Shown: positions 10,715 to 55,870 of the stretch, one piece after another
Layout: every line of letters starts with the position of its first letter
How positions within the stretch are numbered: the stretch's first letter is position 1
Assembly (NCBI GenBank): GCA_964057225.1
Contig: OZ059895.1
Location: 17,856,001 to 17,920,000 of the forward strand
Reading direction: 5' to 3'
DNA length: 64,000 nt
Origin: Auanema rhodensis
Taxonomy: Eukaryota > Animalia > Nematoda
Position numbers and translations under genes: made by a program
Notes under the pieces: model-generated
The model's database searches: none
Told to the model about the DNA's origin: nothing
The model's input: only the letters and a program-made list of their open reading frames with translations

Positions 10715-11080
10715 CGTTCCATTATGCTCCTACGTATATTGAACAGACCATTGTAGTCTGCTCAACTACGCGTATAGTATTCCATAAGTGTAGCGGTATG
10801 GAAACAGAGCATAAGGATTACATAAGATAAGGAAATATATAGGTTTATTATACACAATACAATATCATTACAATACAATAACACAAGTATAAAGTAAACT
10901 ACATTTACAAGACAAAGACTAATATATAAGATTAACTAAGTTAGATGCAAACCGTCCATGGGCTTGCAAAGGGGCGAACTCCCGAATAGGGGCATGAGGG
11001 AAGGCGGTGCCATTCCTCATTCCTCTAGTCGGTCTGGCTCTAACCCTGTAGTTACATATATAGAGTCTCCGAATGGAACG
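10715..11080 (-). repeat. 3' LTR of gypsy family A
   Basis: Direct repeat of 22418-22783; 9-bp terminal inverted repeat CGTTCCATT...AATGGAACG; AATAAA on the - strand near 10844-10849. Confidence 0.95.
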
Positions 11081-11090
11081 TGCCCTTTTT
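11081..11090 (-). promoter_or_regulatory. Polypurine tract of family A (AAAAAGGGCA)
   Basis: Purine run abutting the 3' LTR; the identical sequence abuts the family B LTR (25986-25995). Confidence 0.85.
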
Positions 11091-11780
11091 CAAAGATTGT
11101 CGCGACCTCGCGATATTTTAAACAAAAATTTTGGGCTTATATGTAACTGAGTTTTAGAGTTCAATTGTTTTAGCTTCACAATAACTATAGTATGATAGAG
11201 TTTTAGTTAGTATACAAACAAAATTACAATAATTTATAAGAAGGGTTCAATATAATATGAAGTGACGATGAATTAGAATATTATTAATTTCATAAATTAA
11301 TTATCTTAATATTCAAGCATTTCCTAATAGAGATTGTAGAATAAGGGGCTAGTAATGAATGGGAATATGTTATTATTTTGACTAATGGTCTCAAGAAGTA
11401 CTCATTTCTAAATTGAACCGAGATTATGATTTAATAATGTGTCTCCATATGTCTCCCAGAGTGAATCCTTGATTACTAATGGAGACTACCACTTAAGATG
11501 AAATTGTGGTTGATACGCCTACCAGTGTTTATCTCATCTTATTTGGAGAGGCACATGGAGCTCGGATGGTTGTCAAAATGTCCTCTAGTCCGCATAGGAT
11601 TACGGTAACTTGGAACCATTAGTCATAACATCTCCTCGTTTAGAATTTGCCTTATTTTTCCTTTCTCAATCTCTATTAAATGCTATTTTTATTTTGAATG
11701 TTATTTAGTATTAATTTTTTTTTCTCTAATTCATCTTTATTTTGTTACAATAATTTAAATAACGTAGCATTATCTTGTTG

Positions 11781-14700
11781 TTATTCTTCTTCATTCCTCG
11801 GAAGCCATATTTCGTCTTCATTTTCATCTTCTGGCTCTGTATCTATGCTATCCTTGTTGTTCCTGTTGATCACTTCTATTATTTCGATGTCGCTATCTTC
11901 TTCTGCTTGACTTTCTCGAAATCTTGCGCGAGTGTTGTAAGAGATGTTTTGTGAAGCAGGAGAGAAGATTTTCAAGTTATCTTTGTGGATATCTTGTAGT
12001 TTTCCTGATGAATTTCTGATTTGAACTTTTGATCCTTCTACGTTGATGACTTCGTATGGTCCATCATAGCTTTTCCGAAGCTTTTGGCCGATTTGGTGTG
12101 ATTTTATAGTCGTCATCACCATGTCGCCCGGTTGAATGTCTCTATGGTGTGCTCTTTGCGTTCTATCTTTCTTCTTTTTCGCATTTTCTTGATTTTTAGC
12201 TATGCGGTTCTTTATTATTTCGTCTCTCTTGTCCATATCTGGTCTTCTTTGGAGTAATTCTTCAGAAATTTCTTGAATTTTGGTGATCGTTTCTGGTAAT
12301 TCAGCGTCCATTGACATTCTGCATTCTTTACCGAATAATGCAATGTAAGGCGCAATCCCTGTAGTCGCGTGCTGAATATTGTTAATAGCAAAAGTGATTT
12401 TTGGTAATACAGTATCCCAGTCACTAAGGTCCTCTTTTAAGTAGTGGGTTAATCCTTCTTCGAGGGTTCTGTGAAGTCTTTCCACTTGTCCATTTGAGTT
12501 CTTTTGGTGTGGTAGTGTTGGTTCATGTTTGATTCCAAGTTTAGTACACATTTCTTCGAACTTTTTGGATACAAAGTTCGAACCTCTATCGGTGATCAAG
12601 CGATGGGGTGGTCCAAAAATGTAAACGAAATGTCGTAGAAATCGGTCAATTGTGATTTCCGTTGTTATTTGTGGTACAGCAATTGTTGTTGACCATTTTG
12701 TAAATGCGTCTTGCATGGTAATGACGTAGGTACAGTTTCTTTTTGAAGGGGGAAATGGTCCCATTACGTCCATGTGGACTCGTTCAAATGGCTTGCTTGG
12801 TATCTCAAAATGACCTATTGGTTGTACCGTCATGGAATGTGGATCTTTTTTTCTTTGAGCACATTTAATGCAGTTCTTGATGAATATAGTAATGTCGTTC
12901 TGCATATTTGTCCAATAGAATCTTCTTAGAATTGCTTCTTTTGTTTTAATAATTCCTTGATGTGCTGCAATTGTAGGATCCTCATGAAAAACTTTGATTA
13001 TTTCCTCAATTATGGGGTGTTCTTGTGGTATTACGATAGCGGGTTGTGGCTTTTTGTCTGTTGGTTTTGTATAGAGCAAGTCATTTATGACACAATATCT
13101 GTCATTAGCTGTCATGTTCTTTTGTGCTCTATATTCAATCTCCGCTATCGTCCGTTTAATCCAAGGGGTGCTTAGTTGAATTTCCTTTATTGTTGGTGTA
13201 TTTATGGCGTTAATGTGAATTTCTTCCATTTTCTTCTTCTTTGTTTCCGGCTTAGCATCGTTAGCTTCTTCACCTATATATCGAGATAGAGCATCGCATA
13301 CTTTATTTAATTGGCCTGCGCGATATTTTATTTCAATATCATATTCTTGGATGACCAGCTGGAACTTCGCAAGACGACCAAATAAGTCTCTGCGTGTCAT
13401 TAAGCTGGTGAGAGGTCGATGGTCCGTAATACATATAGTATGAGTTCCAAGAATGTATGTACGGAATTGATTTAATGCATATACAAGGCCTAATGCTTCT
13501 ATCTCGATTGGTGCGTAGTTACGTTCGGCTTTAACTAGTTTTCTGCTTGCAAATGCGATAGGGTGTAGATTTTTCAGAGGTTGTTTTGGATCTTCCGGTT
13601 GTAATAATACAGCACCTATGGCGATGTTACTACCGTCGCTTTCAACTATAAACAAGCGGTCCGATTTAGGTGGGCTTAAAACGGGTGCCTGTATTAAACT
13701 TCTTTTAAGGAGGTCTAAAGCTTCTTGATGTTTGTTTTCCCATTTGAATTCAGTATCTGCCTTTGTCAGATCGTATAAAGGGCTTGCGATACGTGCAAAA
13801 TCTTTCATGAATTTGCGAAAGAATCCAACCATTCCCAAGAATGCTCGTACACCTGTTGCATTCTTTGGTGCCGGATAATCTTGTATGGCGGCGACTTTTT
13901 GAGGGTCAGGTTTTATACCTTGACGTCCAACAATAAGTCCTAGAAATTTCACTTCTGGTTGAGCAAAAGCGCATTTCTTAAGCTTTATCTTCATTCCCAA
14001 TTCTTCTACTGCTTGCAGTAAATCATCGATATCTTTGAGATGTTGTTCTCTTGTATCAGATATAACTAATAGATCATCCAAATAAACAAATAGTTTACAA
14101 GAACATTTACTTTGCAAATACCTTACTGCTGTTTGAAAGGTATGAGGGGCTCCACAAAGGCCCATCGGCATCCGTTTGTACTGGTATGTGCCGGATGTGG
14201 TCGTAAATGCTGTTAGTGGTCGATCTGATTTTCTCAAGGATATTTGAAAAAATCCTGACACTAAATCGAAGTTTGAGAAAAATTGGGCGCCTGCTGCCAA
14301 ATCAACTATGTCAGAAATGCTTGGAATGACATAAGTTTGCTTGCGTGTGACATTATTTAAAGCTCGAAAATCTGTCACAAACCTATACGTGTCATCTTTC
14401 TTCTTAACTAGTACTACAGGGCTATTAAATAGAGATGTAGAAGGCTCTATTATGCCTTGCTCAAGCATTTCTTTGACTTGTTTTTCAATTTCTTCCTGTT
14501 TTCCTAAGGGAATACGTGTTATTCTCGGCTTTGGCATATCCATATCTGTTCTCAATGGTATGGTATGCTCTATAGAACCTTTAAATAAGCCTATTTTCCT
14601 GTCCTCGTTAAGAAATGCCTCACGATGGCTTTCAATTATTTTTGTAAGCTCATGTTTTTCTTCTTTCGTGAGATCAGCATTCTCTAGATCAAGATCTTTT

Positions 14701-17700
14701 ATGAAGTCTCTTGGAAAATATGGTAGTTTACTCTCCCAATCGGCTTCTGGCGGAACATATGGTAGAATTGGCTTATGCTTAAAGGGTTCACAAGCCGGAA
14801 TTTCTCCAATTATTGCCTGTCCGATGACTGAATTAGCTTCCATAGCTATTGTTTCATCGGTATTGTTACGGAACATAACATATACTCCACTGGTATCACG
14901 AAACGCAGTTGGATATAATGATTTTAATGCGCTTCCACTATCCCCTAAGACAACCACTTCGTTAGATTCTAGTGGTTTATCTGTCTTTATTGGGATAGGT
15001 GCCTCTTCATCAGGCTTTAATGTTTTTGTTCTTAAATTAATGATATTCACAGTTATCTCCGTATGCTTAATAGATTCGTTTCCTATTAATGGGATGGCAT
15101 TGTTTCCAATCTCCAACCTCTTCTTGGATGGTTTAAGGCTGACGTCGATGTTTTCGCTGTCAAGCGCTTTCATGAAATCTAGTCCAATCAAAGCAGGAGC
15201 AGGACAGTCACGATCGTTTGAGACCAAAAAGGTGTGTTCGATCTCGTAGCCGGCAATTTCAATTACAAGATTTATCTTTCCATAAAATGTGAAAGTGGAC
15301 TTGTTGGCTGCCATCGCTACTAAATGTCTCTTCTTGACATTTTCAGCCATGTTCAGATATTTGAGGGTGGAGAGCCTAACATATGACACTGATGAGCCTG
15401 AATCCCATAAAGCTAAAATCAGTTTATCTTCAACTGATATATATATTAATGGTAACTTTGTTTCCGCTGATGCAATAGAAGCAACAAATGGTATTGCGAT
15501 TGGAATAAATGTTACTAAAGCAGGATAGTATTGCTTCATGATGTTATCTGGCATCTGTTGGTCTGGGCGGCTTACAAGTTCCAATGTTTCTTCATAGCCT
15601 GGGGGCTCATTATCTATTTCATGGACATGCATTACGGTTAGTGGAGTGGCTCTGAAGAACCAAAATTTAGCAACAACGAAAAGAATTATTAATACTGCGG
15701 CAATCGTGACTATTGATCCTATAAAGATGAGTGTTCTCTCAATTGAACCTATTAGAAATTGTTTTACGCTAGTCCAGGCGGAAGTTGTGAACTCAGCTGC
15801 TTTAGAGATATAGTCACTGCCCTTTTTCAAAAGATTAAAGGCTGACGTAATCTTTGGATCGTTGTGAATAGTATGTAAAACATGGTTCTGTCGTATGGAT
15901 GCTAAACTTGCTCCATATGCAATAGCTGTTGACATTGAGTAAACTCTCAATGATAAATTGGTGTATAAGTTAGCGCCTGTGAACTTTAAAGGTGTTAATT
16001 GGTGGTATTGCGCTTTATCAAAGAGTGATATTGGTTTTACTTCAACCGATCCATTTATATTTATCCATTCTCCATTTTGATAGTACACATCTGTTGGTAC
16101 ATGTTCGCAATCTATCTCTTTTCCATGTGTTAATAAGTCTCTTGATCCTGGAGCAGCAAAATATAATCTCTCATCTTCTGTTATTACTGGTGTTTCCAAA
16201 TAGCATGTATCATTGATCTTATGATTATGATAAACAGCTTTAGGTTGAAGAGGTAAGCATATATGAACATGAACTATATCGCTGCCTACGAAACGGGCTG
16301 CAATATCCTCTCTTCCTAAAATAGTCCTCATTGCTATTGTGGGTTCTATGTGTAAAATAGAACGCCATAGCTCGAGGTATCTATTTTGAATCTCACATAT
16401 GGATTCATAAGATTCCATAAAATGTTTCTGTAGCTCTTCTTGTATGAGTGTTGTTGTATATTGTAGATGATCTTGAGCTATTCTGCGAGATACGTTGAGG
16501 TTGAATTGTATTTCGTTGTTCACTTTTGACGCTGTATACGTTGCCTGAGCCTGAATTTCTCTGGTTTCTACGGGTGGAGATGATGTTCTTTGTTTCCTTA
16601 AGGTTCGTGACGCCGTGTCAGTGACTGTTGCTAATGTTGTTGGCGAGAGAGTCGTAGTTATCACGGCTGTTGTCGTGTCAACTATGGTTGTCGTCGGAAT
16701 CCGAGTCGTATAGCTTATAGTTGTCTCCTGAACTAGTGAAGCGGGTTTGTCCGTTGTTGTCGTTAATGACAGTCTTCTAGTCAGATAAGGCGGTGTTTCA
16801 ATATCCTCTAACAGTGGTAAAAATGTTTTTATAAGTAGCTGGCGTGTATCCGCGCTTGGGGTTTGAATGCGAGGGTGGGGGCCCATCGATATACCGTAGT
16901 TAGAATCTTTATCTCGATATAGTTTGTTGGTATCTGGCACATTGATTGTTAATTGTCGGAACTTTTCATCATCTACGGCTGCTGCTGTTTTATTTGGCCT
17001 TATTACTCGCAATGTCATCAAGTTATGGTATAAGTAAAGTGTATTTCTAAGTACTATACGCTCATCAGCATTGTCAGTTGTTAAAGTTGGTCGGATAGGC
17101 GGCATGTTCACAAAGGATTTTAAAACCTCTTGCCTTGATGGTACCGACAGATTGTTTTCAAATATTACCGGTGTATAAGCTAGCTCCATCGCTATGCTTT
17201 CGGCTCTTTCGCGGTAGGATCCGTCCTTTTCTAGTAGTTTTTCGTCAAATTCGTGTGCTGTTAATCTGTCACCTATCTGTTCTAATAATTGTTGTGAGGT
17301 TAAATACCGTATAGCGCCGCGAGTGGTTGCTGCCAGTTCCTTTTGCGCAAGAAAATAAAGTATTGCTTCCTCAGGGTCGTGTATTTCGTATGTTTGAAGG
17401 AAACGTTGTATGGATTTATCAGATACGGGACTTCTTAAGAAGAAATAAAACTTCTCGGGATGTGCTGAAACCCAATCAATAATTGAATATGAAGGGTTGA
17501 CAGCTCGTCTGGCCTTTATAAGCGGTATTATCTGATAAATACCAGGATTACTCATCACCGGTCGTAAGAAAGGATAAGGACAAATATTTAATATTAAAGT
17601 TTCAAAATCTTCCTGTTTTTGTATCCACTCCTTGTTTAATTCAACCGTGCATTCCGCAATTGCTCTTTTATCTCTTTTCGCCGGAAGTTTCTTATATTCT

Positions 17701-20489
17701 CTCTCTATTAAAACATGGATATTGGTGTCATTTGGGTACTGTGGTAAGAGAATGTAATTGCCAGTCGTGGTGTGGAAGATTGGCTGTTTAAAACAAGAAG
17801 ATATTTGCTTCGGTATCTCTTTTTGATCGATTACAAGGGCTGATTGAGTGGTTGGTAACAGAATAATGCCGTCTCCAATTATCGCATCATATTCACTCAT
17901 GTCGATATAGTTGCATCGATATTCATAAGGCTGTTTCTCCCATATGATGATTGAGGTATCTGATGCACATTCTCCATGATGCGCTAAGCATCCTTCAGTA
18001 TTTAGTATTAAATTGGAGATTATAGTTTCATCTGGCATCCGTGTCATAGCCCCTCTTTCGATAACCAATCTGGCTTTCTCTTTACATAGTTCATTATTAA
18101 AAGATCGGCCTGGCGAGAAGGAAGGCTCGTCAGTTGCATATGTTATGCTGTCGATCTTCTTTAATTCACTCCAATTCCATCTTCTATCTCTCACTGCCAG
18201 TCTGCATTCTGCAGCTGGTATCTTTTCAATTCTCGCTATCGTTGTATTGGTATCTCTAAGGAACAAAAGGTCTCTGATACACATTTTATGAATTTCTTTG
18301 GAGCATCTCCATGCATCCCATTCATGTGCCGTTTGATTCCTTGTATAAAGATGAACTTTTGTTCGTAAGATATGCTTTATTGGTGGTAATAAGCATTTTC
18401 GGAGAGATGGGGGACGGAGAAGGGCTCCTCCAGTAGCTTTAGTACATAGCTGGTATGCTTCAGCTGTTGTAACCAGTGATAAGATTACTGATAAAGCTAC
18501 GGCTAAAGTCAAAGGAGATATCAGAGTCAAATTATTGACTCTTGAGCCTCTACCTCTGCCTCTATTGTTGTTATTTCCCCTAAAGGTACTGTTATTTCTC
18601 TGTCTATTATTGCTCATTTCTTGATTTTGTGATGCATTGTGGCTTCTTTGATACCCATTTTGATTTTGATTCTGATAATTTCGACCGCGGTCACCAAAAT
18701 TGCGGTTCCTAGCAAATGGGTTTTGGAAATTCCAGCCTTTTTGATTTTTTGAAAATTTATGATAATTTTGATTGTTTTGAAAGTTTGGATGATAATTGTT
18801 ATAATTATTATTATAATTTTGATAATTTTTATTATTAAAAGATTGATAACCTCTTGCCATACCTCTCCCACCATTGTTTCTGCGCGGGGGGAAAGTTCTT
18901 TCAATTGCGTTAACCAATAGCGCCTGAGGGTCTGCTACTTGGTTTGCAATTGATTCCTCCCAGCGAGCACTATCAACAGCCTCAGCAAAAGTTTTGGGTT
19001 TTGCTCGAATTACCCCTGGGCGTATCGTATTTTTCAAGCCTCTCAAAAATGTGGACCTCAGAATGTGATCTTTATGAGTATCACTATTAGAGAAAGCATT
19101 TAAGCTGAGGTTTCTTAACGTTTGTGCAAAACCATCAATTGATAAATCGCCTTGAGTGCTGTTTTGAAGTGTGATAAGGGCAGGGTCTTGATTGTATTCG
19201 GGACACAGCTTGGATGTTAACTCTTCTATTAGGGTAACCCAAGGTCCAGCTGTTCTGACCTTGTCAGGTAGCTCTAAATAAGCTTCCTCTGCTCTATCAT
19301 TTTTCAATAGTAATGGTAAAATAGTTAGTCTTTCGGGCATCACTAAGCCTAAGGCGTTAGAAAAGGTATTAAACTTTGCCACGAAATCTCTAAAGTTACG
19401 ACTTCCGTCGTATATGGGGCAATAAGGTGAGCTTAATGCGTGCGCAATGGTAGATTTACCAGCTCCCGGAAGACGTGGTGTCTCCGTCATGGTTGGTATA
19501 TCCTCAGGGTATGTGCGAGATGACGTAATCCCTTTACTGCCTGAGCTTCTCGCCGTTAAGTTCTTACCTCCCTTTTTCGAGTTACCAGATGTTGGATAAC
19601 TAATGGTAGGGGCGGCTGAGGAGAACCGCTTCCCTGGGAGTTTGATAACTCGACTCGTTGCCTGAGGCGTCGAATGTATTGAAACGCTTGAACTGGGTAT
19701 AGCGCTATCTGACTTATTAAGGGTTGGGTTGGAGGATACGTGAAGAGAGTTATCAACTTGTTCTGTTGTTACCTCCCCTGGAGACAAATTCAAAACTTTT
19801 ATTAAGCGAGCTGTTAAAGATTTCTTACTTTTGAACTTATCAGTAGTTAGTGATAAGGGCAAAACTTCGGTAATTTCCTGATTTGGTTCTACGGGATTAT
19901 TAGAGGTTGAGCGCCTACGCGGTGTATTAGTTTTTCTTTTATTAATCTTTTTAGAATCAAGCTTTTTCGAATCAAGCTTATCAGTGATAACTGATAAGGG
20001 TGATTTGCGAATAGTGAGAGATGAGGTTTTATTAAGTTGTGAGTTTTCTGTCGGAGTGGAAAATGCCTGCGGTGTTAGAGTTAGTTCAAAAGAAGATGCA
20101 AGATCGTTATCAGTATTAACTGATAAAGTTGATAAGTTTAGGTGGGGGGTGGCTGGTGAAGTATTAGAGGTTATTTGTTTTGGTTTTTGAATTTTTTGAA
20201 TCTTTTTATTACTTTTAAAAGAGTGTACCTTTGGAGTTGAAGCTGAAGTTTGAATATTGTAGTCCTGAATATAGAAATCAGGGTCCTCCTCGGTGTTGTC
20301 CGGAGGTGAATACGTGCCTTCTCGAGGAATGAAGGTTTTCTCGACTTTGGGTTTTACCTCTTGTTCAGGCTCTTCAATCTGAACACTGAGGAGTCGAGTG
20401 CGGCTTCTGGTTCGACTGGCGACTGCGATGTCGTCACTGGACTCAGAAGGGTATAGAGCAGGGACGGCCGAAGAGTATCTTCGTGCCAC
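11781..20489 (-). CDS. Gag-Env-Pol polyprotein (capsid-like Gag, gB-like envelope, aspartic protease, RT, RNase H, integrase); true start uncertain (GTG 20489, first ATG 19490)
   Basis: Protease LWDSGS (DSG 15404-15396), RT YLDD (14084-14073), RNase H ESDGS/EALG/TDH, integrase HHCC + D,D,E (VHMD, ITDRGSN, NGQVER) + GPY; Gag-like FLRGL motif; no stop in 2902 codons. Confidence 0.95.
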   Translation of the reverse strand: MARRYSSAVPALYPSESSDDIAVASRTRSRTRLLSVQIEEPEQEVKPKVEKTFIPREGTYSPPDNTEEDPDFYIQDYNIQTSASTPKVHSFKSNKKIQKIQKPKQITSNTSPATPHLNLSTLSVNTDNDLASSFELTLTPQAFSTPTENSQLNKTSSLTIRKSPLSVITDKLDSKKLDSKKINKRKTNTPRRRSTSNNPVEPNQEITEVLPLSLTTDKFKSKKSLTARLIKVLNLSPGEVTTEQVDNSLHVSSNPTLNKSDSAIPSSSVSIHSTPQATSRVIKLPGKRFSSAAPTISYPTSGNSKKGGKNLTARSSGSKGITSSRTYPEDIPTMTETPRLPGAGKSTIAHALSSPYCPIYDGSRNFRDFVAKFNTFSNALGLVMPERLTILPLLLKNDRAEEAYLELPDKVRTAGPWVTLIEELTSKLCPEYNQDPALITLQNSTQGDLSIDGFAQTLRNLSLNAFSNSDTHKDHILRSTFLRGLKNTIRPGVIRAKPKTFAEAVDSARWEESIANQVADPQALLVNAIERTFPPRRNNGGRGMARGYQSFNNKNYQNYNNNYNNYHPNFQNNQNYHKFSKNQKGWNFQNPFARNRNFGDRGRNYQNQNQNGYQRSHNASQNQEMSNNRQRNNSTFRGNNNNRGRGRGSRVNNLTLISPLTLAVALSVILSLVTTAEAYQLCTKATGGALLRPPSLRKCLLPPIKHILRTKVHLYTRNQTAHEWDAWRCSKEIHKMCIRDLLFLRDTNTTIARIEKIPAAECRLAVRDRRWNWSELKKIDSITYATDEPSFSPGRSFNNELCKEKARLVIERGAMTRMPDETIISNLILNTEGCLAHHGECASDTSIIIWEKQPYEYRCNYIDMSEYDAIIGDGIILLPTTQSALVIDQKEIPKQISSCFKQPIFHTTTGNYILLPQYPNDTNIHVLIEREYKKLPAKRDKRAIAECTVELNKEWIQKQEDFETLILNICPYPFLRPVMSNPGIYQIIPLIKARRAVNPSYSIIDWVSAHPEKFYFFLRSPVSDKSIQRFLQTYEIHDPEEAILYFLAQKELAATTRGAIRYLTSQQLLEQIGDRLTAHEFDEKLLEKDGSYRERAESIAMELAYTPVIFENNLSVPSRQEVLKSFVNMPPIRPTLTTDNADERIVLRNTLYLYHNLMTLRVIRPNKTAAAVDDEKFRQLTINVPDTNKLYRDKDSNYGISMGPHPRIQTPSADTRQLLIKTFLPLLEDIETPPYLTRRLSLTTTTDKPASLVQETTISYTTRIPTTTIVDTTTAVITTTLSPTTLATVTDTASRTLRKQRTSSPPVETREIQAQATYTASKVNNEIQFNLNVSRRIAQDHLQYTTTLIQEELQKHFMESYESICEIQNRYLELWRSILHIEPTIAMRTILGREDIAARFVGSDIVHVHICLPLQPKAVYHNHKINDTCYLETPVITEDERLYFAAPGSRDLLTHGKEIDCEHVPTDVYYQNGEWININGSVEVKPISLFDKAQYHQLTPLKFTGANLYTNLSLRVYSMSTAIAYGASLASIRQNHVLHTIHNDPKITSAFNLLKKGSDYISKAAEFTTSAWTSVKQFLIGSIERTLIFIGSIVTIAAVLIILFVVAKFWFFRATPLTVMHVHEIDNEPPGYEETLELVSRPDQQMPDNIMKQYYPALVTFIPIAIPFVASIASAETKLPLIYISVEDKLILALWDSGSSVSYVRLSTLKYLNMAENVKKRHLVAMAANKSTFTFYGKINLVIEIAGYEIEHTFLVSNDRDCPAPALIGLDFMKALDSENIDVSLKPSKKRLEIGNNAIPLIGNESIKHTEITVNIINLRTKTLKPDEEAPIPIKTDKPLESNEVVVLGDSGSALKSLYPTAFRDTSGVYVMFRNNTDETIAMEANSVIGQAIIGEIPACEPFKHKPILPYVPPEADWESKLPYFPRDFIKDLDLENADLTKEEKHELTKIIESHREAFLNEDRKIGLFKGSIEHTIPLRTDMDMPKPRITRIPLGKQEEIEKQVKEMLEQGIIEPSTSLFNSPVVLVKKKDDTYRFVTDFRALNNVTRKQTYVIPSISDIVDLAAGAQFFSNFDLVSGFFQISLRKSDRPLTAFTTTSGTYQYKRMPMGLCGAPHTFQTAVRYLQSKCSCKLFVYLDDLLVISDTREQHLKDIDDLLQAVEELGMKIKLKKCAFAQPEVKFLGLIVGRQGIKPDPQKVAAIQDYPAPKNATGVRAFLGMVGFFRKFMKDFARIASPLYDLTKADTEFKWENKHQEALDLLKRSLIQAPVLSPPKSDRLFIVESDGSNIAIGAVLLQPEDPKQPLKNLHPIAFASRKLVKAERNYAPIEIEALGLVYALNQFRTYILGTHTICITDHRPLTSLMTRRDLFGRLAKFQLVIQEYDIEIKYRAGQLNKVCDALSRYIGEEANDAKPETKKKKMEEIHINAINTPTIKEIQLSTPWIKRTIAEIEYRAQKNMTANDRYCVINDLLYTKPTDKKPQPAIVIPQEHPIIEEIIKVFHEDPTIAAHQGIIKTKEAILRRFYWTNMQNDITIFIKNCIKCAQRKKDPHSMTVQPIGHFEIPSKPFERVHMDVMGPFPPSKRNCTYVITMQDAFTKWSTTIAVPQITTEITIDRFLRHFVYIFGPPHRLITDRGSNFVSKKFEEMCTKLGIKHEPTLPHQKNSNGQVERLHRTLEEGLTHYLKEDLSDWDTVLPKITFAINNIQHATTGIAPYIALFGKECRMSMDAELPETITKIQEISEELLQRRPDMDKRDEIIKNRIAKNQENAKKKKDRTQRAHHRDIQPGDMVMTTIKSHQIGQKLRKSYDGPYEVINVEGSKVQIRNSSGKLQDIHKDNLKIFSPASQNISYNTRARFRESQAEEDSDIEIIEVINRNNKDSIDTEPEDENEDEIWLPRNEEE
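15655..18530 (-). other. Envelope glycoprotein domain within the polyprotein (class III fusogen, herpesvirus gB / chuvirus G-like)
   Basis: Internal signal peptide ending AEA|YQLC (18530-18456), Cys-rich ectodomain with about 10 N-x-S/T sequons, furin-type KRDKR (17678-17664), a gB domain III/IV-like segment ICEIQNRYLELWRSILHIEP..LGREDIAARFVGSDIVHVHICLP..CY, and a C-terminal TM helix (15735-15655). Confidence 0.85.
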
Positions 20490-20905
20490 TTTGGAATCAC
20501 TCTTGGTTTGGAAAAACCGCGAGTGTTTCGTTATATGGGGGATGTTGACGTTGAATGAGTGACAAGAAATTCAGGTCGGTTATAGGGAAAAGTAAGAAAA
20601 GTTTGAAGATTGAGACGTGGCGTCTTTCGCCGAGAATCGTTATTAGATGAGAAAGAGTTTTAAAATCTTGGCCTGAGATCTGGCTCCGCCTATCTACCGT
20701 ATTCTCTTTTCTTTATTCTATTTCACAGATGTTCATCAATTATAAATTTTGTTGGTCTTCGCTCTTTCTAGCCTCAATCTTAATACTTTACTCTAATTGA
20801 ATTCTTGAAAGTATGAGAGAGATTTTCAGTCGTTTTATGTCCCCTTTTTATGCATAAGAATCTTTATATTTGTAGAGCTGAAAAAAAAAATAAATAAATC
20901 AAAGA

Positions 20906-21439
20906 ATGGCTTATGAAGGTCTATCGGGAATGACTTTTGTCTTGAGGAAGCTGTACGCTGACCTCGTCTTGTATGATCAAGACGAAGTGTTAGCTTATAG
21001 GCCGCACCCAGACATAATTAAGATGGTTGGTTAAAACAAAGAAACATGTTATCTTAATAAGAATTTTTAGTTTATTGAGGATTTAAAGATGCATTATCTG
21101 GGAAGGGGATTAGTAAACTTCTCCCTAATGCAGGAAATAGCGGATGAGGTTGCAGCTATCCGGCGATGGTGCCTCACCGACTTGTGCGCGCATTGGTATG
21201 AAAACCCAAATCTGGTCGCATCCCCTTGGAATTGGTATGAGCATAAGTCTCATGATTTTTATGATTATATGTCTAAAATTTTGTTTAAAATTTATTTATT
21301 TTATGAACAGTCTCCTATGGGCTTATTGCTAAGGACCTCTGCGGATTCAGTGTATTCGCAGTATTTAGAGCCTAGCGATGAGCCCATCTCACAGCCTATA
21401 GAATTTGTGAGACAGTTGCATTTTAAATGGGGCTTTTAA
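20906..21439 (+). CDS. Predicted spliced antisense accessory gene in the family A leader (exons 20906-21025, 21071-21439; 162 aa, unknown function)
   Basis: 40-codon ATG exon; a 45-nt GT..TTTTTAG intron (21026-21070) joins in frame to the 116-aa ORF; AATAAA at 21456-21461. Confidence 0.6.
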
Positions 21440-22404
21440 CAATTGTTTTATATATAATAAATACTTAATTTCACTCATTTGTTCTCTCTCTCTTTTTTTT
21501 TCATAACACAAACTTTGGTCGAGCTTATTAATAAAGAAGGAGTGCGTGCGCCTTGGGAAAATGGCTCATGTGCACGTTGATTATTAAAAGCCGTGGGCGA
21601 TTCTTTTTCGGAATGATTATGGCATGCTAATGAGATTCCGAGAATATTTAAAAAGATTGCTCATTTTACTAATGGACTGAGACCAAAGCTCGTTTATAAA
21701 ACGCAATTTTTTTCTTTAAACCATTCTACTAATTTATAGAATATTACAATATGAATACTACGGTAGGTGTGTGGGAATATCTTATGATGTTAGCAACAAA
21801 AATGAGCTGAGGAAGGTGACACATTCTACGGAGAAGAAAACATCCGTAGCCCATGTGCTTTCGCCAAAATGACCTGACAGGCAATAAAATTTGTGCCAGG
21901 ATTTTTCGGACTAGTGTGGTCTATTCTCACAATCAAAAAAAAATAAAAACCGAATAACGGCTCCCGCAAAAATATTTAGTTAGCATGCTCTTTTACGCCT
22001 GAATTTAACTTTCAAATCTCTAGTCCTGACCACAATAAAATATTAAACTTTGTGCGCTTTCAAAATTTCATTCTAACTCCTCGTTGCCAAATAATAATGT
22101 AATCAAAATTTCGTTTGGTGAAATTGTCCCCTATTTCGATCCAAACGTCCTCAAAAAAAAATGCAAGAGAAGCGGTGCAGGATACGGTATTATAAGGGTG
22201 GACACTCAGACGGTTTTATGAGTGGGGACAGCGGGTGAAATTTCAAAATTATATAGTCCTAGCTCTCTAAAAGAGAGATCCCTTGTACCTGCACCTTATA
22301 CAAGTTGGCGCCCTCATTATGTTGCTAACCGTGGAGGAAGTTTTAATTTAGATATCAAAATATGGACTTTTTATGCGAGTTTTTTGCGACAAAAATGAGT
22401 TCGA

Positions 22405-22417
22405 GGTGGAACCTCCA
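22405..22417 (-). promoter_or_regulatory. Primer-binding site complementary to the tRNA-Gln 3' end
   Basis: TGGAGGTTCCACC directly follows the 5' LTR; it is the complement of the animal tRNA-Gln 3' end GGTGGAACCT-CCA. Confidence 0.85.
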
Positions 22418-22783
22418 CGTTCCATTATGCTCCTACGTATATTGAACAGACCATTGTAGTCTGCTCAACTACGCGTATAGTATTCCATAAGTGTAGCGGT
22501 ATGGAAACAGAGCATAAGGATTACATAAGATAAGGAAATATATAGGTTTATTATACACAATACAATATCATTACAATACAATAACACAAGTATAAAGTAA
22601 ACTACATTTACAAGACAAAGACTAATATATAAGATTAACTAAGTTAGATGCAAACCGTCCATGGGCTTGCAAAGGGGCGAACTCCCGAATAGGGGCATGA
22701 GGGAAGGCGGTGCCATTCCTCATTCCTCTAGTCGGTCTGGCTCTAACCCTGTAGTTACATATATAGAGTCTCCGAATGGAACG
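22418..22783 (-). repeat. 5' LTR of gypsy family A
   Basis: Direct repeat of 10715-11080 with no differences seen by eye; adjacent to the PBS. Confidence 0.95.
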
Positions 22784-24883
22784 CCCTCAACTGCTGAGCT
22801 TCGCCTCGTTCTTGTTTCTATTTGTTTCATATTGTTCATCCACAAACAGTGACTGTATAGAAATATTTTTCTATCTTATTGTAGCCTCTATAGCTCAGTG
22901 GCAGAGCGTTGGTCTTGTAAACCAAAGGTCGGTGGTTCAATCCCGCCTGGAGGCAATTTTTTTCTTTCTGAACACCTCAGTTTGAAGAAATAACATCTGT
23001 AAATCAATTCAAAATTACCCTCAACTGCTGAGCTTCGCCTCGTTCTTGTTTCTATTTGTTTCATATTGTTCATCCACAAACAGTGACTGTATAGAAATAT
23101 TTTTCTATCTTATTGTAGCCTCTATAGCTCAGTGGCAGAGCGTTGGTCTTGTAAACCACAGGTCGGTGGTTCAATCCCGCCTGGAGGCATTTTTTTTCTT
23201 TCTGAACACCTCAGTTTGAAGAAATAACATCTGTAAATCAATTCAAAATTACCCTCAATTGCTGAGCTTCGCCTCGTTCTTGTTTCTATTTGTTTCATAT
23301 TGTTCATCCACCAACAGTGACTGTATAGAAATATTTTTCTATCTTATTGTAGCCTCTATAGCTCAGTCGCCTGGAGGCAATTTTTTTTCTTTCTGACCAC
23401 CTCAGTTTGAAGAAATAACATCTGTAAATCAATTCAAAATTACCCTCAACTGCTGAGCTTCGCCTCGTTCTTGTTTCTATTTGTTTCATATTGTTCATCC
23501 ACCAACAGTGACTGTATAGAAATATTTTTCTATCTTATTGTAGCCTCTATAGCTCAGTGGCAGAGCGTTGGTCTTGTAAACCAAAGGTCGGTGGTTCAAT
23601 CCCGCCTGGAGGCAATTTTTTTTCTTTCTGAACACCTCAGTTCGAAGAAATAACATCTGTAAATCAATTCAAAACTACCCTCAACTGCTGAGCTTCGCCT
23701 CGTTCTTGTTTCTATTTGTTGCATATTGTTCATCCACAAACAGTGACTGTATAGAAATATTTTTCTATCTTATTGTAGCCTCTATAGCTCAGTGGCAGAG
23801 CGTTGGTCTTGTAAACCAAAGGTCGGTGGTTCAATCCCGCCTGAAGGCAATTTTTTTCTTTCTGAACACCTCAGTTTGAAGAAATAACATCTGTAAATCA
23901 ATTCAGAATTACCCTCAACTGCTGAGCTTCGCCTCGTTCTTGTTTCTATTTGTTTCATATTGTTCATCCACAAACAGTGACTGTATAGAAATATTTTTAT
24001 ATCTTATTGTAGCCTCTATAGCTCAGTGGCAGAGCGTTGGTCTTGTAAACCAAAGGTCGGTGGTTCAATCCCGCCTGGAGGCATTTTTTTTCTTTCTGAA
24101 CACCTCAGTTTGAAGAAATAACATCTGTGAATCAATTCAAAATTACCCTCAACTGCTGAGCTTCGCCTCGTTCTTGTTTCTATTTGTTTCATATTGTTCA
24201 TCCACCAACAGTGACTGTATAGAAATATTTTTCTATCTTATTGTAGCCTCTATAGCTCAGTGGCAGAGCGTTGGTCTTGTAAACCAAAGGTCGGTGGTTC
24301 AATCCCGCCTGGAGGCATTTTTTTAATTTCTGAACACCTTAGTTTGAAGAAATAACATCTGTAAATCAATTCAAAACTACCCTCAACTGCTGAGCTTCGC
24401 CTCGTTCTTGTTTCTATTTGTTTCATATTGTTCATCCACAAACAGTGACTGTATAGAAATATTTTTCTATCTTATTGTAGCCTCTATAGCTCAGTGGCAG
24501 AGCGTTGGTCTTGTAAACCAAAGGTCGGTGGTTCAATCCCGCCTGAAGGCAATTTTTTTCTTTCTGAACACCTCAGTTTGAAGAAATAACATCTGTAAAT
24601 CAATTCAAAATTACCCTCAACTGCTGAGTTTCGCCTCGTTCTTGTTTCTATTTGTTTCATATTGTTCATCCACAAACAGTGACTGTATAGAAATATTTTT
24701 ATATCTTATTGTAGCCTCTATAGCTCAGTGGCAGAGCGTTGGTCTTGTAAACCAAAGGTCGGTGGTTCAATCCCGCCTGGAGGCATTTTTTTTCTTTCTG
24801 AACACCTCAGTTTGAAGAAATAACATCTGTAAATCAATTCAGAATTACCCTCAACTGCTGAGCTTCGCCTCGTTCTTGTTTCT
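22784..24883 (+). repeat. tRNA-Thr(TGT) array block 2 (~9 units, one deleted)
   Basis: Same 234-bp unit; resumes in register at the CCCT TSD. Confidence 0.95.
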
Positions 24884-26353
24884 TGGAAAAGCATCAAGAA
24901 TTAGCAAAAAAGAAACATGATGCTCGATTACGCACTCACGAAAGAGATATACAAAAAGGAGACTGCGTTATGTTAGCTGTGAAAATGCACAAGCCAGGAC
25001 AAAAGCTTCGGAAAGCTTATGATGGACCATTTGAAGTTATAAATGTGAAGGGAAACATGGTTCAAATCAAAAACCTTTTCGGAAAGATCCAAGACGTTCA
25101 CAAGGACAATCTCAAATTATTTAATCGAGAAACAGATGACGGAATCGCACATATGCCCAGTGCACGTACAGACAGCTCAGACGATGACAGCGTTATCGAA
25201 ATCATAGAGGTTATCAACGGAAACAACAACGATGAAGACTCTTATGACGAACCAGAAGACCTTTCGGATACAAATTGGCTACCATCAAGAAGAAACCATT
25301 AACTCATGAGATTTTATCGTAAATTGTTTTGTAATAACTTTCTTTAAAGTAATACTAGAACACAAATTTTGTAACGAGTCCTCTAAAACAAGTCACTCTT
25401 AAGTCAAAAAGTAAACTAGAGCATAATGAATACGGGAAATGTGAGAAGATAATTCTTTATCATACAGTTCGAACCTTCCTAATTTCAACTAACATCCCCA
25501 TACTAGATGAGATGAAAAATGAAAGACATAGTTTGCAACAATATCTGAGCAACAGTCTTCACTTGAGTAATCAATGACTAAATTTGGAAGTTATTTGGTA
25601 TTACGCAAAACTTTTCTTTTTTTCTAAACTCACACAAATTGAAACAAACAACCGAGCTCTAAAAAAAAAAAAAAAATAGTTAACTTTTTGTCTACACTTG
25701 TTAGAGCGTTATGCTTAAAAACTTTTTTTATTATTATTTTATAAGCACGTTCGCCAATAAAACATAGTCTAGTATTCGTTAAAGAGGGTTAAAACTTTCA
25801 TAATTTGGTTAAAAATTTTTAATTCTTTTCAGATACTGATGTTTTATATTGTATTATGTTCATATTATAAGAATTTTACGTAAAATATTGTATTGTAACA
25901 TGTACTTTAATACACACATTAACCCTTCTGCTACAGTTAATCAAGTCAAAACTTTTGATTGTCGCGAGGACGCGACATAAACTCGAAAAAGGGCACGTTC
26001 CATTCGGATGATCAATGCATTACATTCATATGACGAAGCTGTAGCAGGCGGGTTACAGTCAGAGAATGCGAGACTGAGAGAAGACGACCCGCCCTTTTCC
26101 ATATTACAACACTTCAGCTTTGCCTCAGGGACGATCATGGATGGTTGGTCGTTCTCTCTCTGTTCTCTATTAGTTTAACCTTTACTTAGTTATATGTATC
26201 TTATTGTAATCACGTAGATATAATAAACCAATCTTTCTCGCGTCTTATGTTTATCCTTATGCTCCATGTTTAACCGCTACATCTGGAATACTACCACGCT
26301 CATCTTGTAGACTCCATTGGTCTGTAAGATCGACGCGGGAGCATAACGGAACG
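24883..26353 (+). mobile_element. 3' fragment of gypsy family B (integrase C-terminus 24883-25302, 3' UTR, PPT, LTR)
   Basis: ORF with YDGPF motif homologous to the family A integrase tail; PPT AAAAAGGGCA at 25986-25995; 5' end fused to the array spacer. Confidence 0.92.
25996..26353 (+). repeat. 3' LTR of gypsy family B (358 bp)
   Basis: Starts CGTTCCATTCGGA after the PPT and ends GAGCATAACGGAACG, paralleling the family A LTR ends; AATAAA near 26222. Confidence 0.88.
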
Positions 26354-29300
26354 ACAGTCACTGTTTGTGGATGAACAATATGAAACAAATAGAAATAAGA
26401 ACGAGGCGAAGCTCAGCAGTTGAGGGTAATTCTGAATTGATTTACAGATGTTATTTCTTCAAACTGAGGTGTTCAGAAAAAAAAAATGCCTCCAGGCGGG
26501 ATTGAACCACCGACCTTTGGTTTACAAGACCAACGCTCTGCCACTGAGCTATAGAGGCTACAATAAGGAATAAAAATATTTCTATACAGTCACTGTTTGT
26601 GGATGAACAATATGCAACAAATAGAAACAAGAACGAGGCGAAGCTCAGCAGTTGAGGGTAATTCTGAATTGATTTACAAATGTTATTTCTTCAAACTGAG
26701 GTGTTCAGAAAGAAAAAAATGCCTCCAGGCGGGATTGAACCACCGACCTTTGGTTTACAAGACCAACGCTCTGCCACTGAGCTATAGAGGCTACAATAAG
26801 ATATAAAAATATTTCTATACAGTCACTGTTTGTGGATGAACAATATGAAACAAATAGAAACAAGAACGAGGCGAAGCTCAGCAGTTGAGGGTATTTCTGA
26901 ATTGATTTACAGATGTTATTTCTTCAAACTGAGGTGTTCAGAAAGAAAAAAAATTGCCTCCAGGCGGGATTGAACCACCGACCTTTGGTTTACAAGACCA
27001 ACGCTCTGCCACTGAGCTATAGAGGCTACAATAAGGAATAAAAATATTTCTATACAGTCACTGTTTGTGGATGAACAATATGCAACAAATAGAAACAAGA
27101 ACGAGGCGAAGCTCAGCAGTTGAGGGTAATTCTGAATTAATTTACAGATGTTATTTCTTCAAACTGAGGTGTTCAGAAAGAAAAAAAATTGCCTCCAGGC
27201 GGGATTGAACCACCGACCTTTGGTTTACAAGACCAACGCTCTGCCACTGAGCTATAGAGGCTACAATAAGGAATACGCGGGAGCATAACGGAACGACAGT
27301 CACTGTTTGTGGATGAACAATATGAAACAAATAGAAATAAGAACGAGGCGAAGCTCAGCAGTTGAGGGTAATTCTGAATTGATTTACAGATGTTATTTCT
27401 TCAAACTGAGGTGTTCAGAAAAAAAAAATGCCTCCAGGCGGGATTGAACCACCGACCTTTGGTTTACAAGACCAACGCTCTGCCACTGAGCTATAGAGGC
27501 TACAATAAGGAATAAAAATATTTCTATACAGTCACTGTTTGTGGATGAACAATATGCAACAAATAGAAACAAGAACGAGGCGAAGCTCAGCAGTTGAGGG
27601 TAATTCTGAATTGATTTACAGATGTTATTTCTTCAAACTGAGGTGTTCAGAAAGAAAAAAATGCCTCCAGGCGGGATTGAACCACCGACCTTTGGTTTAC
27701 AAGACCAACGCTCTGCCACTGAGCTATAGAGGCTACAATAAGATATAAAAATATTTCTATACAGTCACTGTTTGTGGATGAACAATATGAAACAAATAGA
27801 AACAAGAACGAGGCGAAGCTCAGCAGTTGAGGGTATTTCTGAATTGATTTACAGATGTTATTTCTTCAAACTGAGGTGTTCAGAAAGAAAAAAAATTGCC
27901 TCCAGGCGGGATTGAACCACCGACCTTTGGTTTACAAGACCAACGCTCTGCCACTGAGCTATAGAGGCTACAATAAGGAATACGCGGGAGCATAACGGAA
28001 CGACAGTCACTGTTTGTGGATGAACAATATGAAACAAATAGAAATAAGAACGAGGCGAAGCTCAGCAGTTGAGGGTAATTCTGAATTGATTTACAGATGT
28101 TATTTCTTCAAACTGAGGTGTTCAGAAAAAAAAAATGCCTCCAGGCGGGATTGAACCACCGACCTTTGGTTTACAAGACCAACGCTCTGCCACTGAGCTA
28201 TAGAGGCTACAATAAGATATAAAAATATTTCTATACAGTCACTGTTTGTGGATGAACAATATGAAACAAATAGAAACAAGAACGAGGCGAAACTCAGCAG
28301 TTGAGGGTAATTTTGAATTGATTTACAGATGTTATTTCTTCAAACTGAGGTGTTCAGAAAGAAAAAAATTGCCTTCAGGCGGGATTGAACCACCGACCTT
28401 TGGTTTACAAGACCAACGCTCTGCCACTGAGCTATAGAGGCTACAATAAGATAGAAAAATATTTCTATACAGTCACTGTTTGTGGATGAACAATATGAAA
28501 CAAATAGAAACAAGAACGAGGCGAAGCTCAGCAGTTGAGGGTAGTTTTGAATTGATTTACAGATGTTATTTCTTCAAACTAAGGTGTTCAGAAATTAAAA
28601 AAATGCCTCCAGGCGGGATTGAACCACCGACCTTTGGTTTACAAGACCAACGCTCTGCCACTGAGCTATAGAGGCTACAATAAGATATAAAAATATTTCT
28701 ATACAGTCACTGTTTGTGGATGAACAATATGAAACAAATAGAAACAAGAACGAGGCGAAGCTCAGCAGTTGAGGGTAATTCTGAATTGATTTACAGATGT
28801 TATTTCTTCAAACTGAGGTGTTCAGAAAGAAAAAAATTGCCTTCAGGCGGGATTGAACCACCGACCTTTGGTTTACAAGACCAACGCTCTGCCACTGAGC
28901 TATAGAGGCTACAATAAGATAGAAAAATATTTCTATACAGTCACTGTTTGTGGATGAACAATATGAAACAAATAGAAACAAGAACGAGGCGAAGCTCAGC
29001 AGTTGAGGGTAATTTTGAATTGATTTACAGATGTTATTTCTTCAAACTGAGGTGTTCAGAAAGAAAAAAATTGCCTCCAGGCGGGATTGAACCACCGACC
29101 TTTGGTTTACAAGACCAACGCTCTGCCACTGAGCTATAGAGGCTACAATAAGATAGAAAAATATTTCTATACAGTCACTGTTTGTGGATGAACAATATGA
29201 AACAAATAGAAACAAGAACGAGGCGAAGCTCAGCAGTTGAGGGTAATTTTGAATTGATTTACAGATGTTATTTCTTCAAACTAAGGTGTTCAGAAAGAAA

Positions 29301-32300
29301 AAAATTGCCTTCAGGCGGGATTGAACCACCGACCTTTGGTTTACAAGACCAACGCTCTGCCACTGAGCTATAGAGGCTACAATAAGATAGAAAAATATTT
29401 CTATACAGTCACTGTTGGTGGATGAACAATATGAAACAAATAGAAACAAGAACGAGGCGAAGCTCAGCAGTTGAGGGTAATTTTGAATTGATTTACAGAT
29501 GTTATTTCTTCAAACTAAGGTGTTCAGAAAGAAAAAAATTGCCTTCAGGCGGGATTGAACCACCGACCTTTGGTTTACAAGACCAACGCTCTGCCACTGA
29601 GCTATAGAGGCTACAATAAGGAATAAAAATATTTCTATACAGTCACTGTTTGTGGATGAACAATATGCAACAAATAGAAACAAGAACGAGGCGAAGCTCA
29701 GCAGTTGAGGGTAGTTTTGAATTGATTTACAGATGTTATTTCTTCAAACTGAGGTGTTCAGAAAGAAAAAAAATTGCCTTCAGGCGGGATTGAACCACCG
29801 ACCTTTGGTTTACAAGACCAACGCTCTGCCACTGAGCTATAGAGGCTACAATAAGATAGAAAAATATTTCTATACAGTCACTGTTGGTGGATGAACAATA
29901 TGAAACAAATAGAAACAAGAACGAGGCGAAGCTCAGCAGTTGAGGGTAATTTTGAATTGATTTACAGATGTTATTTCTTCAAACTAAGGTGTTCAGAAAG
30001 AAAAAAATTGCCTTCAGGCGGGATTGAACCACCGACCTTTGGTTTACAAGACCAACGCTCTGCCACTGAGCTATAGAGGCTACAATAAGGAATAAAAATA
30101 TTTCTATACAGTCACTGTTTGTGGATGAACAATATGCAACAAATAGAAACAAGAACGAGGCGAAGCTCAGCAGTTGAGGGTAGTTTTGAATTGATTTACA
30201 GATGTTATTTCTTCAAACTGAGGTGTTCAGAAAGAAAAAAAATTGCCTCCAGGCGGGATTGAACCACCGACCTTTGGTTTACAAGACCAACGCTCTGCCA
30301 CTGAGCTATAGAGGCTACAATAAGATAGAAAAATATTTCTATACAGTCACTGTTTGTGGATGAACAATATGAAACAAATAGAAACAAGAACGAGGCGAAG
30401 CTCAGCAGTTGAGGGTAATTTTGAATTGATTTACAGATGTTATTTCTTCAAACTGAGGTGTTCAGAAAGAAAAAAAATTGCCTCCAGGCGACTGAGCTAT
30501 AGAGGCTACAATAAGATAGAAAAATATTTCTATACAGTCACTGTTGGTGGATGAACAATATGAAACAAATAGAAACAAGAACGAGGCGAAGCTCAGCAGT
30601 TGAGGGTAATTTTGAATTGATTTACAGATGTTATTTCTTCAAACTGAGGTGTTCAGAAAGAAAAAAAATGCCTCCAGGCGGGATTGAACCACCGACCTTT
30701 GGTTTACAAGACCAACGCTCTGCCACTGAGCTATAGAGGCTACAATAAGATAGAAAAATATTTCTATACAGTCACTGTTTGTGGATGAACAATATGAAAC
30801 AAATAGAAACAAGAACGAGGCGAAGCTCAGCAGTTGAGGGTAATTTTGAATTGATTTACAGATGTTATTTCTTCAAACTGAGGTGTTCAGAAAGAAAAAA
30901 ATTGCCTCCAGGCGGGATTGAACCACCGACCTTTGGTTTACAAGACCAACGCTCTGCCACTGAGCTATAGAGGCTACAATAAGATAGAAAAATATTTCTA
31001 TACAGTCACTGTTTGTGGATGAACAATATGAAACAAATAGAAACAAGAACGAGGCGAAGCTCAGCAGTTGAGGGTAATTTTGAATTGATTTACAGATGTT
31101 ATTTCTTCAAACTAAGGTGTTCAGAAAGAAAAAAATTGCCTTCAGGCGGGATTGAACCACCGACCTTTGGTTTACAAGACCAACGCTCTGCCACTGAGCT
31201 ATAGAGGCTACAATAAGATAGAAAAATATTTCTATACAGTCACTGTTTGTGGATGAACAATATGAAACAAATAGAAACAAGAACGAGGCGAAGCTCAGCA
31301 GTTGAGGGTAGTTTTGAATTGATTTACAGATGTTATTTCTTCAAACTAAGGTGTTCAGAAATTAAAAAAATGCCTCCAGGCGGGATTGAACCACCGACCT
31401 TTGGTTTACAAGACCAACGCTCTGCCACTGAGCTATAGAGGCTACAATAAGATAGAAAAATATTTCTATACAGTCACTGTTGGTGGATGAACAATATGAA
31501 ACAAATAGAAACAAGAACGAGGCGAAGCTCAGCAGTTGAGGGTAATTTTGAATTGATTCACAGATGTTATTTCTTCAAACTGAGGTGTTCAGAAAGAAAA
31601 AAAATGCCTCCAGGCGGGATTGAACCACCGACCTTTGGTTTACAAGACCAACGCTCTGCCACTGAGCTATAGAGGCTACAATAAGATATAAAAATATTTC
31701 TATACAGTCACTGTTTGTGGATGAACAATATGAAACAAATAGAAACAAGAACGAGGCGAAGCTCAGCAGTTGAGGGTAATTCTGAATTGATTTACAGATG
31801 TTATTTCTTCAAACTGAGGTGTTCAGAAAGAAAAAAATTGCCTTCAGGCGGGATTGAACCACCGACCTTTGGTTTACAAGACCAACGCTCTGCCACTGAG
31901 CTATAGAGGCTACAATAAGATAGAAAAATATTTCTATACAGTCACTGTTTGTGGATGAACAATATGCAACAAATAGAAACAAGAACGAGGCGAAGCTCAG
32001 CAGTTGAGGGTAGTTTTGAATTGATTTACAGATGTTATTTCTTCGAACTGAGGTGTTCAGAAAGAAAAAAAATTGCCTCCAGGCGACTGAGCTATAGAGG
32101 CTACAATAAGAAAGAAAAATATTTCTATACAGTCACTGTTTGTGGATGAACAATATGAAAAAAATAGAAACAGGAACGAGGCGAAGCTCAGCAGTTGAAG
32201 GTAATTCTGAATTGATTTACAGATGTTATTTCTTCAAACTAAGGTGTTCAGAAAGAAAAAAAATGCCTCCAGGCGGGATTGAACCACCGACCTTTGGTTT

Positions 32301-32795
32301 ACAAGACCAACGCTCTGCCACTGAGCTATAGAGGCTACAATAAGATAGAAATATATTTCTATACAGTCACTGTTTGTGGATGAACAATATGAAACAAATA
32401 GAAACAGGAACGAGGCGAAGCTCAGCAGTTGAGGGTAGTTTTGAATTGATTTACAGATGTTATTTCTTCGAACTGAGGTGTTCAGAAAGAAAAAAAATTG
32501 CCTCCAGGCGACTGAGCTATAGAGGCTACAATAAGAAAGAAAAATATTTCTATACAGTCACTGTTTGTGGATGAACAATATGAAAAAAATAGAAACAGGA
32601 ACGAGGCGAAGCTCAGCAGTTGAAGGTAATTTTGAATTGATTTACAGATGTTATTTCTTCAAACTGAGGTGTTCAGAAAGAAAAAAAATGCTTCCAGGCG
32701 GTATTGAACCACCGACCTTTGGTTTACAAGACCAACGCTCTGCCACTGAGCTATAGAGGCTACAATAAGATAGAAAAATATTTCTATACAGTCAC
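26354..32795 (-). repeat. tRNA-Thr(TGT) array block 3, inverted orientation (~28 units, 3 deleted)
   Basis: Reverse complement of the same unit. Confidence 0.95.
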
Positions 32796-34217: not shown

Positions 34218-34222
34218 CAATA

Positions 34223-40200: not shown

Positions 40201-40345
40201 TGTAACGAGTCCTCTAAAACAAGTCACTCTTAAGTCAAAAAGTAAACTAGAGCATAATGAACACGGGAAATGTGAGAAGATAATTCTTTATCATACAGTT
40301 CGAACCTTCCTAATTTCAACTAACTTCCCCATACTAGATGAGATG
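34223..40345 (+). pseudogene. Degraded gypsy family B internal region: gag, partial env, RT, RNase H, integrase; no LTRs
   Basis: ORFs 34379-37078, 37241-37834, 37749-38918 and 39012-40133 are colinear with the family A polyprotein. Frameshifts near 37060 and 37748; deletions near 36066, 37180 (env C-half, TM and protease lost) and 38915. Confidence 0.92.
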
Positions 40346-55600: not shown

Positions 55601-55870
55601 TGCTTTACGAAGCGTTTTGTCTGATGCTTCGTAAAATTTTTGGAATTTTTTCTCGTTATCTTGATGATTTTTCAACGATTCTTTGAATTGGTGTTGGACT
55701 TTTGTCCAGCGAATGATAAGGCAAGAGAGGGTTTCCTCTTCTTCCTCAGTGTGGAAGTCGCAATCTACCAGAATACCAGGAAGGTCCTTCACTTCCATCT
55801 CGTATCGTGTAAGCAGTTCTCCAAGAAACTGGTTAGATTGTTTGATATGATTGACAAAAAGGAGTGACAT
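49622..55870 (-). pseudogene. BEL/Pao gag-pol polyprotein interrupted by one in-frame TAA (52582-52580)
   Basis: ORFs 55870-52580 and 52525-49622 are in the same frame, separated by a single stop plus 18 sense codons; the final stop codon lies in tRNA-array spacer sequence. Confidence 0.88.

Follow-up and report, generated by a model that had tools for sequence, protein, structure and literature searches.

Does the 5' leader of an intact nematode LTR element carry a spliced gene on its opposite strand, and if so, does that gene act through a protein? The question arises in Auanema rhodensis, in a 64,000-nucleotide stretch of contig OZ059895.1 (hereafter the window). There, a preliminary description made from the letters had joined two open frames across a short intron, antisense to the element, and had proposed an accessory protein of 162 aa. 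Every coordinate given in that description proved correct when we re-checked the sequence. To the reading that an intact gag-env-pol Ty3/gypsy element harbours, antisense in its 5' leader, a spliced two-exon gene for a 162-aa accessory protein, which is acidic, aromatic-rich and predicted to be helical, we assign a probability of roughly 0.65. The feature is real, and its support is better than that of most such predictions. A real antisense accessory gene of 162 aa is likely, and we infer its function from composition and analogy.

The host element is an intact Ty3/gypsy element with gag-env-pol order, located on the minus strand from 22783 to 10715 of the window (Table 1). The identity of its two LTRs points to a recent insertion, in which the antisense cassette was copied lately. 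The pol domains follow the order PR-RT-RH-IN, as in Ty3/gypsy, and the gag core is 65–66% identical to that of a Retrotrans_gag-positive sister protein. At aa 1366–1509, N-terminal to the protease, Pfam detects Monjiviricetes_fusion (E 6e-15) and Glycoprotein_B (E 7e-9, under its own cutoff). When residues 360–900 of the polyprotein were compared with 7,994 scored candidates of 30–1,609 aa, no relative reached 1e-10. The combination of gag-env-pol order with a gB-type env is known from nematodes, bryozoans and flatworms, according to the available text of PMC13524379. In the accessible part of its supplement, GTGGAACCTCCA is given as a Gln primer site of nematode errantiviruses; the primer 12-mer is identical to that of 2 of the 30 nematode rows (of 36), and 8 of these 30 have Gln-type primer sites. 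Gene order, primer site and short introns together make a nematode host likely.

Table 1. Coordinates of the element and of the antisense gene in the window.
Feature	Position	Strand	Remarks
5' LTR	22418-22783	-	366 nt, ends CGTTCC..GGAACG, identical to 10715-11080
3' LTR	10715-11080	-	366 nt
Polypurine tract	11081-11090	-	immediately inside 3' LTR
Target duplication CCCT, 4 bp	10711-10714 and 22784-22787		flanks element
Primer binding site, tRNA-Gln type	22400-22417	-	GTGGAACCTCCA on + strand
Leader, 1,847 nt, from primer site to long frame	20571-22417	-	harbours antisense gene
Single frame, 2,929 codons	11781-20570	-	gag, gB/class-III-type env, protease, RT, RNase H, integrase
TTTTCAG acceptor-like site	20823-20829	+	read through by contigs of X2, X3 and X4
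Exon 1 coding part, ATG 20906, 40 codons, 120 nt	20906-21025	+	in junction-bearing contigs of X3, X4 and partly X1
Intron, 45 nt, phase 0, GTTGGTTA..AATTTTTAG, GT..AG	21026-21070	+	contig joints and sequence
Exon 2 coding part, 122 codons + TAA	21071-21439	+	59% identical to P0002
AATAAA, likely poly(A) signal (predicted)	21456-21461	+	sequence

Two features of the element's own coding part are seen in a sister family of the window as well. The first Met of the 2,929-codon frame is codon 361, leaving 360 Met-free open codons ahead of gag (19491–20570, minus strand), and the sister element has a Met-free frame of at least 208 codons before its gag Met (34211–34834, plus strand). Both frames are rich in S, T, K and P, and they suggest a non-AUG start or a hidden spliced start. 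The LTRs of both gypsy families end in CGTTCC..GGAACG and not in TG..CA (10715–11080, 22418–22783 and about 25997–26353).

The antisense gene occupies part of the leader. As had been described, exon 2 consists of FIEDLK followed by 116 aa from a Met and lies in frame after the intron. Two in-frame stops are located inside the intron, so unspliced read-through would be unable to yield the long protein. Exons 1 and 2 have a GC content of 44% and 40%, against 22% for the intron and 24% for the sequence directly downstream. Each of the remaining five frames across exon 2 is interrupted by 6–13 stops, and a coding frame on the minus strand over exon 2, with 6–9 stops per frame, was ruled out. At the density found in the leader, an AATAAA would fall within a 21-nt interval by chance in about 8% of cases. 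The preliminary description had likened the intron in size to a 43-nt host intron at 201–243; the GT..TTTTTAG stretch is present there on the minus strand, as a candidate intron, and the comparison of sizes is made at the level of sequence. Between 20474 and 20905 there are eight short ATG frames, and contigs of three runs extend upstream across several of them, which leaves ATG 20906 as a candidate start only.

The evidence for splicing comes from four public runs (X1–X4) covering parts of the leader, all of one study and available as assembled contigs. None is recorded as RNA, and the label 'RNA' is a guess made by the search tool. Assembly removes strand and drops rare forms, and unspliced sense RNA may be present too. 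The contigs of three of the four runs (X1, X3 and X4) skip exactly 21026–21070, with no letters between the two sides and with 58–230 letters on the shorter side of the joint; the junction 21025^21071, which had been predicted, is therefore seen in strandless contigs. In X2, a loose end of 9 nt equals the end of exon 1. The intron itself is absent from all listed contigs of the four runs. Since the joint reads GT..AG on the plus strand and CT..AC on the genomic strand, the processed RNA is antisense, its strand being deduced from the splice ends. We have little doubt that the spliced antisense RNA is real. Over 10490–20420, which takes in most of the long frame, the contigs of the four runs contain no joint, and none was seen that links the 3' LTR with the antisense gene.

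The same contigs lend no support to trans-splicing of a spliced leader at the TTTTCAG site, which had also been suggested. Those of X2, X3 and X4 cross the site without a joint or a loose end, with the reservation that strandless contigs across 20829 may derive from sense RNA there. At several places the contigs differ from the window, and they must derive from another copy or strain. Within 465 coding nt there is one difference, which is synonymous. Indels between contigs and window number 0 in the exons (2.3 expected) and 8 in about 1,600 non-coding nt, a contrast that is not significant (P 0.10). One unit of the tRNA array, used as a silent-stretch control, has no cover in X1–X3 and a single contig with foreign flanks in X4, which fits RNA but, being a hole in the cover, is given no weight. 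The stretch 21462–21793 has no contig cover, and we do not take it as the 3' end.

Some further observations concern the element's transcripts in general. All four runs have loose ends at 22367–22432, where contigs of other sequences carry the stretch of primer site and LTR end, pointing to more expressed families with the same tRNA-Gln primer. One contig of 3,168 nt in X3 covers the 3' end of pol and the 3' untranslated region (11051–14213). LTR contigs start at 10830 (X3) and 10811 (X4), near a minus-strand AATAAA at 10844.

In a full HMMER pass through 1.84 billion representative proteins, exon 2 has a sole match, P0002, a protein of 125 aa encoded on a single contig of 1,035 nt. The two are 59% identical over residues 1–122 (E 4.3e-38). 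For exon 1, no protein relative was found. The alignment begins at the acceptor, where P0002 reads MFQ before FVEDLK and the window reads F-stop before FIEDLK, and both proteins stop at WGF, with two single-residue gaps overall. The F-Q of P0002 is an in-frame reading of a TTTCAG acceptor, so that the intron position is likely common to both. Judged from sequence, P0002 likely corresponds to the second exon of a gene that is interrupted by an intron at the same place. A word-index search with exon 2 gave no match, and with a two-sequence profile it returned P0002 only, among 26 candidates. Contig scans of metagenome and viral collections found no relatives; two short weak matches (L001 and L002) were rejected as chance. 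Thin sampling of the element family may explain the single match.

A single relative leaves room for another origin of the gene. A host gene might have been captured with its intron in reverse and travel as a passenger in one element, P0002 being its host orthologue or paralogue. The AATAAA and the short AT-rich intron, which resembles the 43-nt stretch at 201–243, do look like those of a host gene, and P0002 is known from its contig alone. The other elements of the window have no copy of the gene, though the sister's leader is not present there. However, a single match in 1.84 billion representatives is not what one expects of a conserved nematode gene, which should have many. No repeats were found that would frame the gene as a nested transposon, and transduced genes are usually sense-oriented, as stated in the accessible text of PMC7264820. 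Between the element and the sister family in the window, identity is 54% in env, 66% in the gag core and 71% in RT, and the 59% between exon 2 and P0002 falls inside this range. We regard capture as unlikely and hold that the gene is probably a settled part of the element family, not a passenger.

The comparison of exon 2 with P0002 also bears on the nature of the product. The antisense RNA itself might be what works, by pairing with the genomic leader or by disturbing the 5' LTR promoter, with the protein secondary or absent. The transcript would be complementary to the leader throughout, its synthesis would converge with that from the LTR promoter, translation of the frame is a prediction, and a non-coding antisense RNA of micropia as well as dual RNA and protein roles are reported in the available parts of PMC7264820 and PMC10186651. 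Against this, conservation tracks one plus-strand frame to the exact stop, with single-codon gaps only, and the pattern of residues is protein-like. W, C, F, Y, G and P are kept at 26 of 33 places (about 19–20 expected) and polar residues at 21 of 47 (about 27 expected), a difference with a Fisher p of 0.003 for classes that were grouped after the table had been seen. Under neutral change to 58–59% identity, a frame of 122 codons would escape stops in about 1% of cases, a figure weakened by the fact that P0002 could enter the library only as an open frame. The quality of the mismatches is barely above neutral (z 1.7–1.9). On the side of RNA, Rfam has no match for the gene region, and structure on the genomic strand is nothing unusual (z -1.64). 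An RNA that acts without the protein is quite unlikely in our judgement, and a role of the RNA is compatible with the best explanation. We consider it highly probable that the gene codes for a protein under selection.

A chance open frame with a cryptic splice in read-through RNA, made from a host promoter at some other copy, is very improbable: when the leader is shuffled with its dinucleotides preserved, 58 of 1,000 shuffles do contain a stop-free frame of at least 122 codons, which makes this ORF by itself not significant, and the contigs do come from another copy or strain, but a one-intron model of at least 162 codons occurs in 0 of 1,000 shuffles, and the similarity to the full-length P0002 runs from acceptor to stop.

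The preferred reading, that of a spliced gene encoding an accessory protein, asks what this protein could do. Both exons and P0002 are acidic (pI 4.6–5.2) and have no basic cluster. RNA-binding silencing suppressors are usually basic. The acidic composition, a property of the predicted sequence, speaks against a protein of the Rev, Tat or dsRNA-binding kind, including an RNA-binding silencing suppressor. Exon 2 is 18% aromatic, and a hydrophobic stretch of membrane length is absent. With neither basic nor membrane segments, the protein most likely acts by binding proteins and not RNA. A C-x4-C-x-H pattern and a C-terminal His are common to the window protein and P0002, and metal binding through this pattern would be a guess from the sequence.

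Structure prediction, proposed in the preliminary description, produced a helical model of low confidence and no matching fold. AlphaFold2 with the two sequences gave a pLDDT of 53.5, best over residues 21–70, and including exon 1 brought no improvement (42.7). Foldseek searches of viral and PDB libraries returned nothing under E 2. No significant match came from searches of Pfam, NCBIfam and PDB sequences, where the lowest E was 0.14, and Pfam at E 10 gave neither TRP28 nor any other match. Atlas matches to Peptidase_S28 and DUF3800 (0.76–0.81) were rejected, as their scores are at the level of shuffles and they disagree with each other.

LTR elements copy their sense RNA, in which an intron and a poly(A) signal of the opposite strand are unreadable. 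Survival of an antisense intron through reverse transcription, as argued earlier, is a consequence of this. In the genomic RNA the intron reads CT..AC and the poly(A) signal appears as TTTATT; neither is used there, so that the cassette passes whole to new insertions. Because the 3' LTR lies some 10 kb off, we propose that an antisense promoter inside the element, close to where gag begins, would drive the mRNA, which would end near 21475. Being complementary to the genomic leader and running head-on to the 5' LTR promoter, this mRNA would lower the amount of genomic RNA. For the protein we propose a role in trans, as an adaptor to a host silencing or restriction factor or to the element's own proteins. 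The adaptor role, drawn from composition and by analogy, is a tentative proposal. Put together, an env-carrying lineage of nematode retroelements might have turned 'complex', with a self-contained, intron-bearing antisense gene in its 5' leader, an intron at a conserved position, a new protein family countering host silencing, and an mRNA throttling the genomic RNA that it overlaps; we hold this fuller picture to be possible but doubtful.

Some C. elegans Cer elements have been described with extra ORFs. We compared the gene with the known systems that come closest, and its position, strand or sequence sets it apart from each of them. The nematode gag-env-pol errantiviruses, as far as the available text of PMC13524379 describes them, share the gene order, the gB/class-III env, the tRNA-Gln site and intact LTRs with our element. 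The word 'antisense' is absent from the main text of that source, and a leader gene does not appear in the text available. Antisense ORFs of plants (gene23 of Grande, RIRE2 and TRP28 of Retand) are likewise an extra antisense ORF in a Ty3/gypsy element (accessible portions of PMC7264820, PMC11963269 and PMC4408406). Gene23 has its own internal promoter in the 3' region and its function is unknown (PMC7264820, same portion). In plants and fungi, however, such ORFs lie between pol and the 3' LTR, whereas the window gene lies between the primer site and gag. An intron, which the window gene has, is not mentioned for the plant ORFs in the parts of PMC7264820 and PMC11963269 at hand, and TRP28 has no sequence match to the window protein.

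HBZ of HTLV-1 and APH-2 of HTLV-2 are also small regulatory proteins made from a spliced antisense mRNA, and the RNA may act too (PMC10186651, available sections). They are driven by the 3' LTR and occupy the 3' part of the genome in vertebrate retroviruses, whereas the window gene is at the 5' side, ahead of gag. HBZ is a bZIP protein; the window protein has no Pfam match, no bZIP and no sequence similarity to it. CERV of the C. elegans element Cer1 is another spliced accessory gene of a nematode Ty3/gypsy element and has no homologue outside nematodes (PMC10309623, accessible text). In contrast to the window gene, which is antisense, encodes 162 aa and overlaps no frame, CERV is sense, encodes 517 aa in five exons and shares frames with gag. 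ORF0 of LINE-1 is also an antisense ORF in a 5' untranslated region with splice donors (PMC10760644, available portion), but LINE-1 is a non-LTR element and ORF0 splices outward to host exons, whereas both exons and the poly(A) signal of the window gene lie inside the element. The available parts of PMC5408684, PMC8220671 and PMC2774666 contain no closer case.

Antisense accessory genes are thus known from deltaretroviruses and, as ORFs of unknown function, from the 3' part of plant Ty3/gypsy elements (PMC10186651 and PMC7264820, in their accessible text). Among the openly readable papers that our literature search covered, none describes an invertebrate LTR element whose 5' leader carries a spliced antisense gene. 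Standard annotation of elements seeks long sense ORFs and does not see such antisense genes, so they may be common and overlooked. The present case provides a concrete search image, namely short-intron antisense models in leaders. It also provides a small orphan protein with which to test how such elements stay active under strong small-RNA defence.

The window is mostly a tandem array of tRNA-Thr(TGT), with 128 genes in repeat units roughly 234 and 190 bp long from 2484 to 64000, interrupted by LTR elements and containing an inverted block at 26354–32795. All element junctions lie in spacers, at most about 135 nt from a tRNA, and the gypsy and the Bel/Pao element interrupt the tRNA unit at nearly the same place. 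The sister gag-env-pol family, at 32796–40344 and 24884–26353, is about 70% identical in pol DNA and rearranged. Its env part is shortened, its pol is spread over several frames, and where the leader would be expected there is an inverted duplicate, 1.4 kb long, of the integrase end. A separate 3' fragment with one LTR is located nearby. The Bel/Pao element (49630–56521, minus strand) has two long frames split by a stop, and no LTR pair was detected for it. Between a host gene and the tRNA array, at 1790–2490, a GC-rich repeat with a 9-bp unit shows open frames on both strands.
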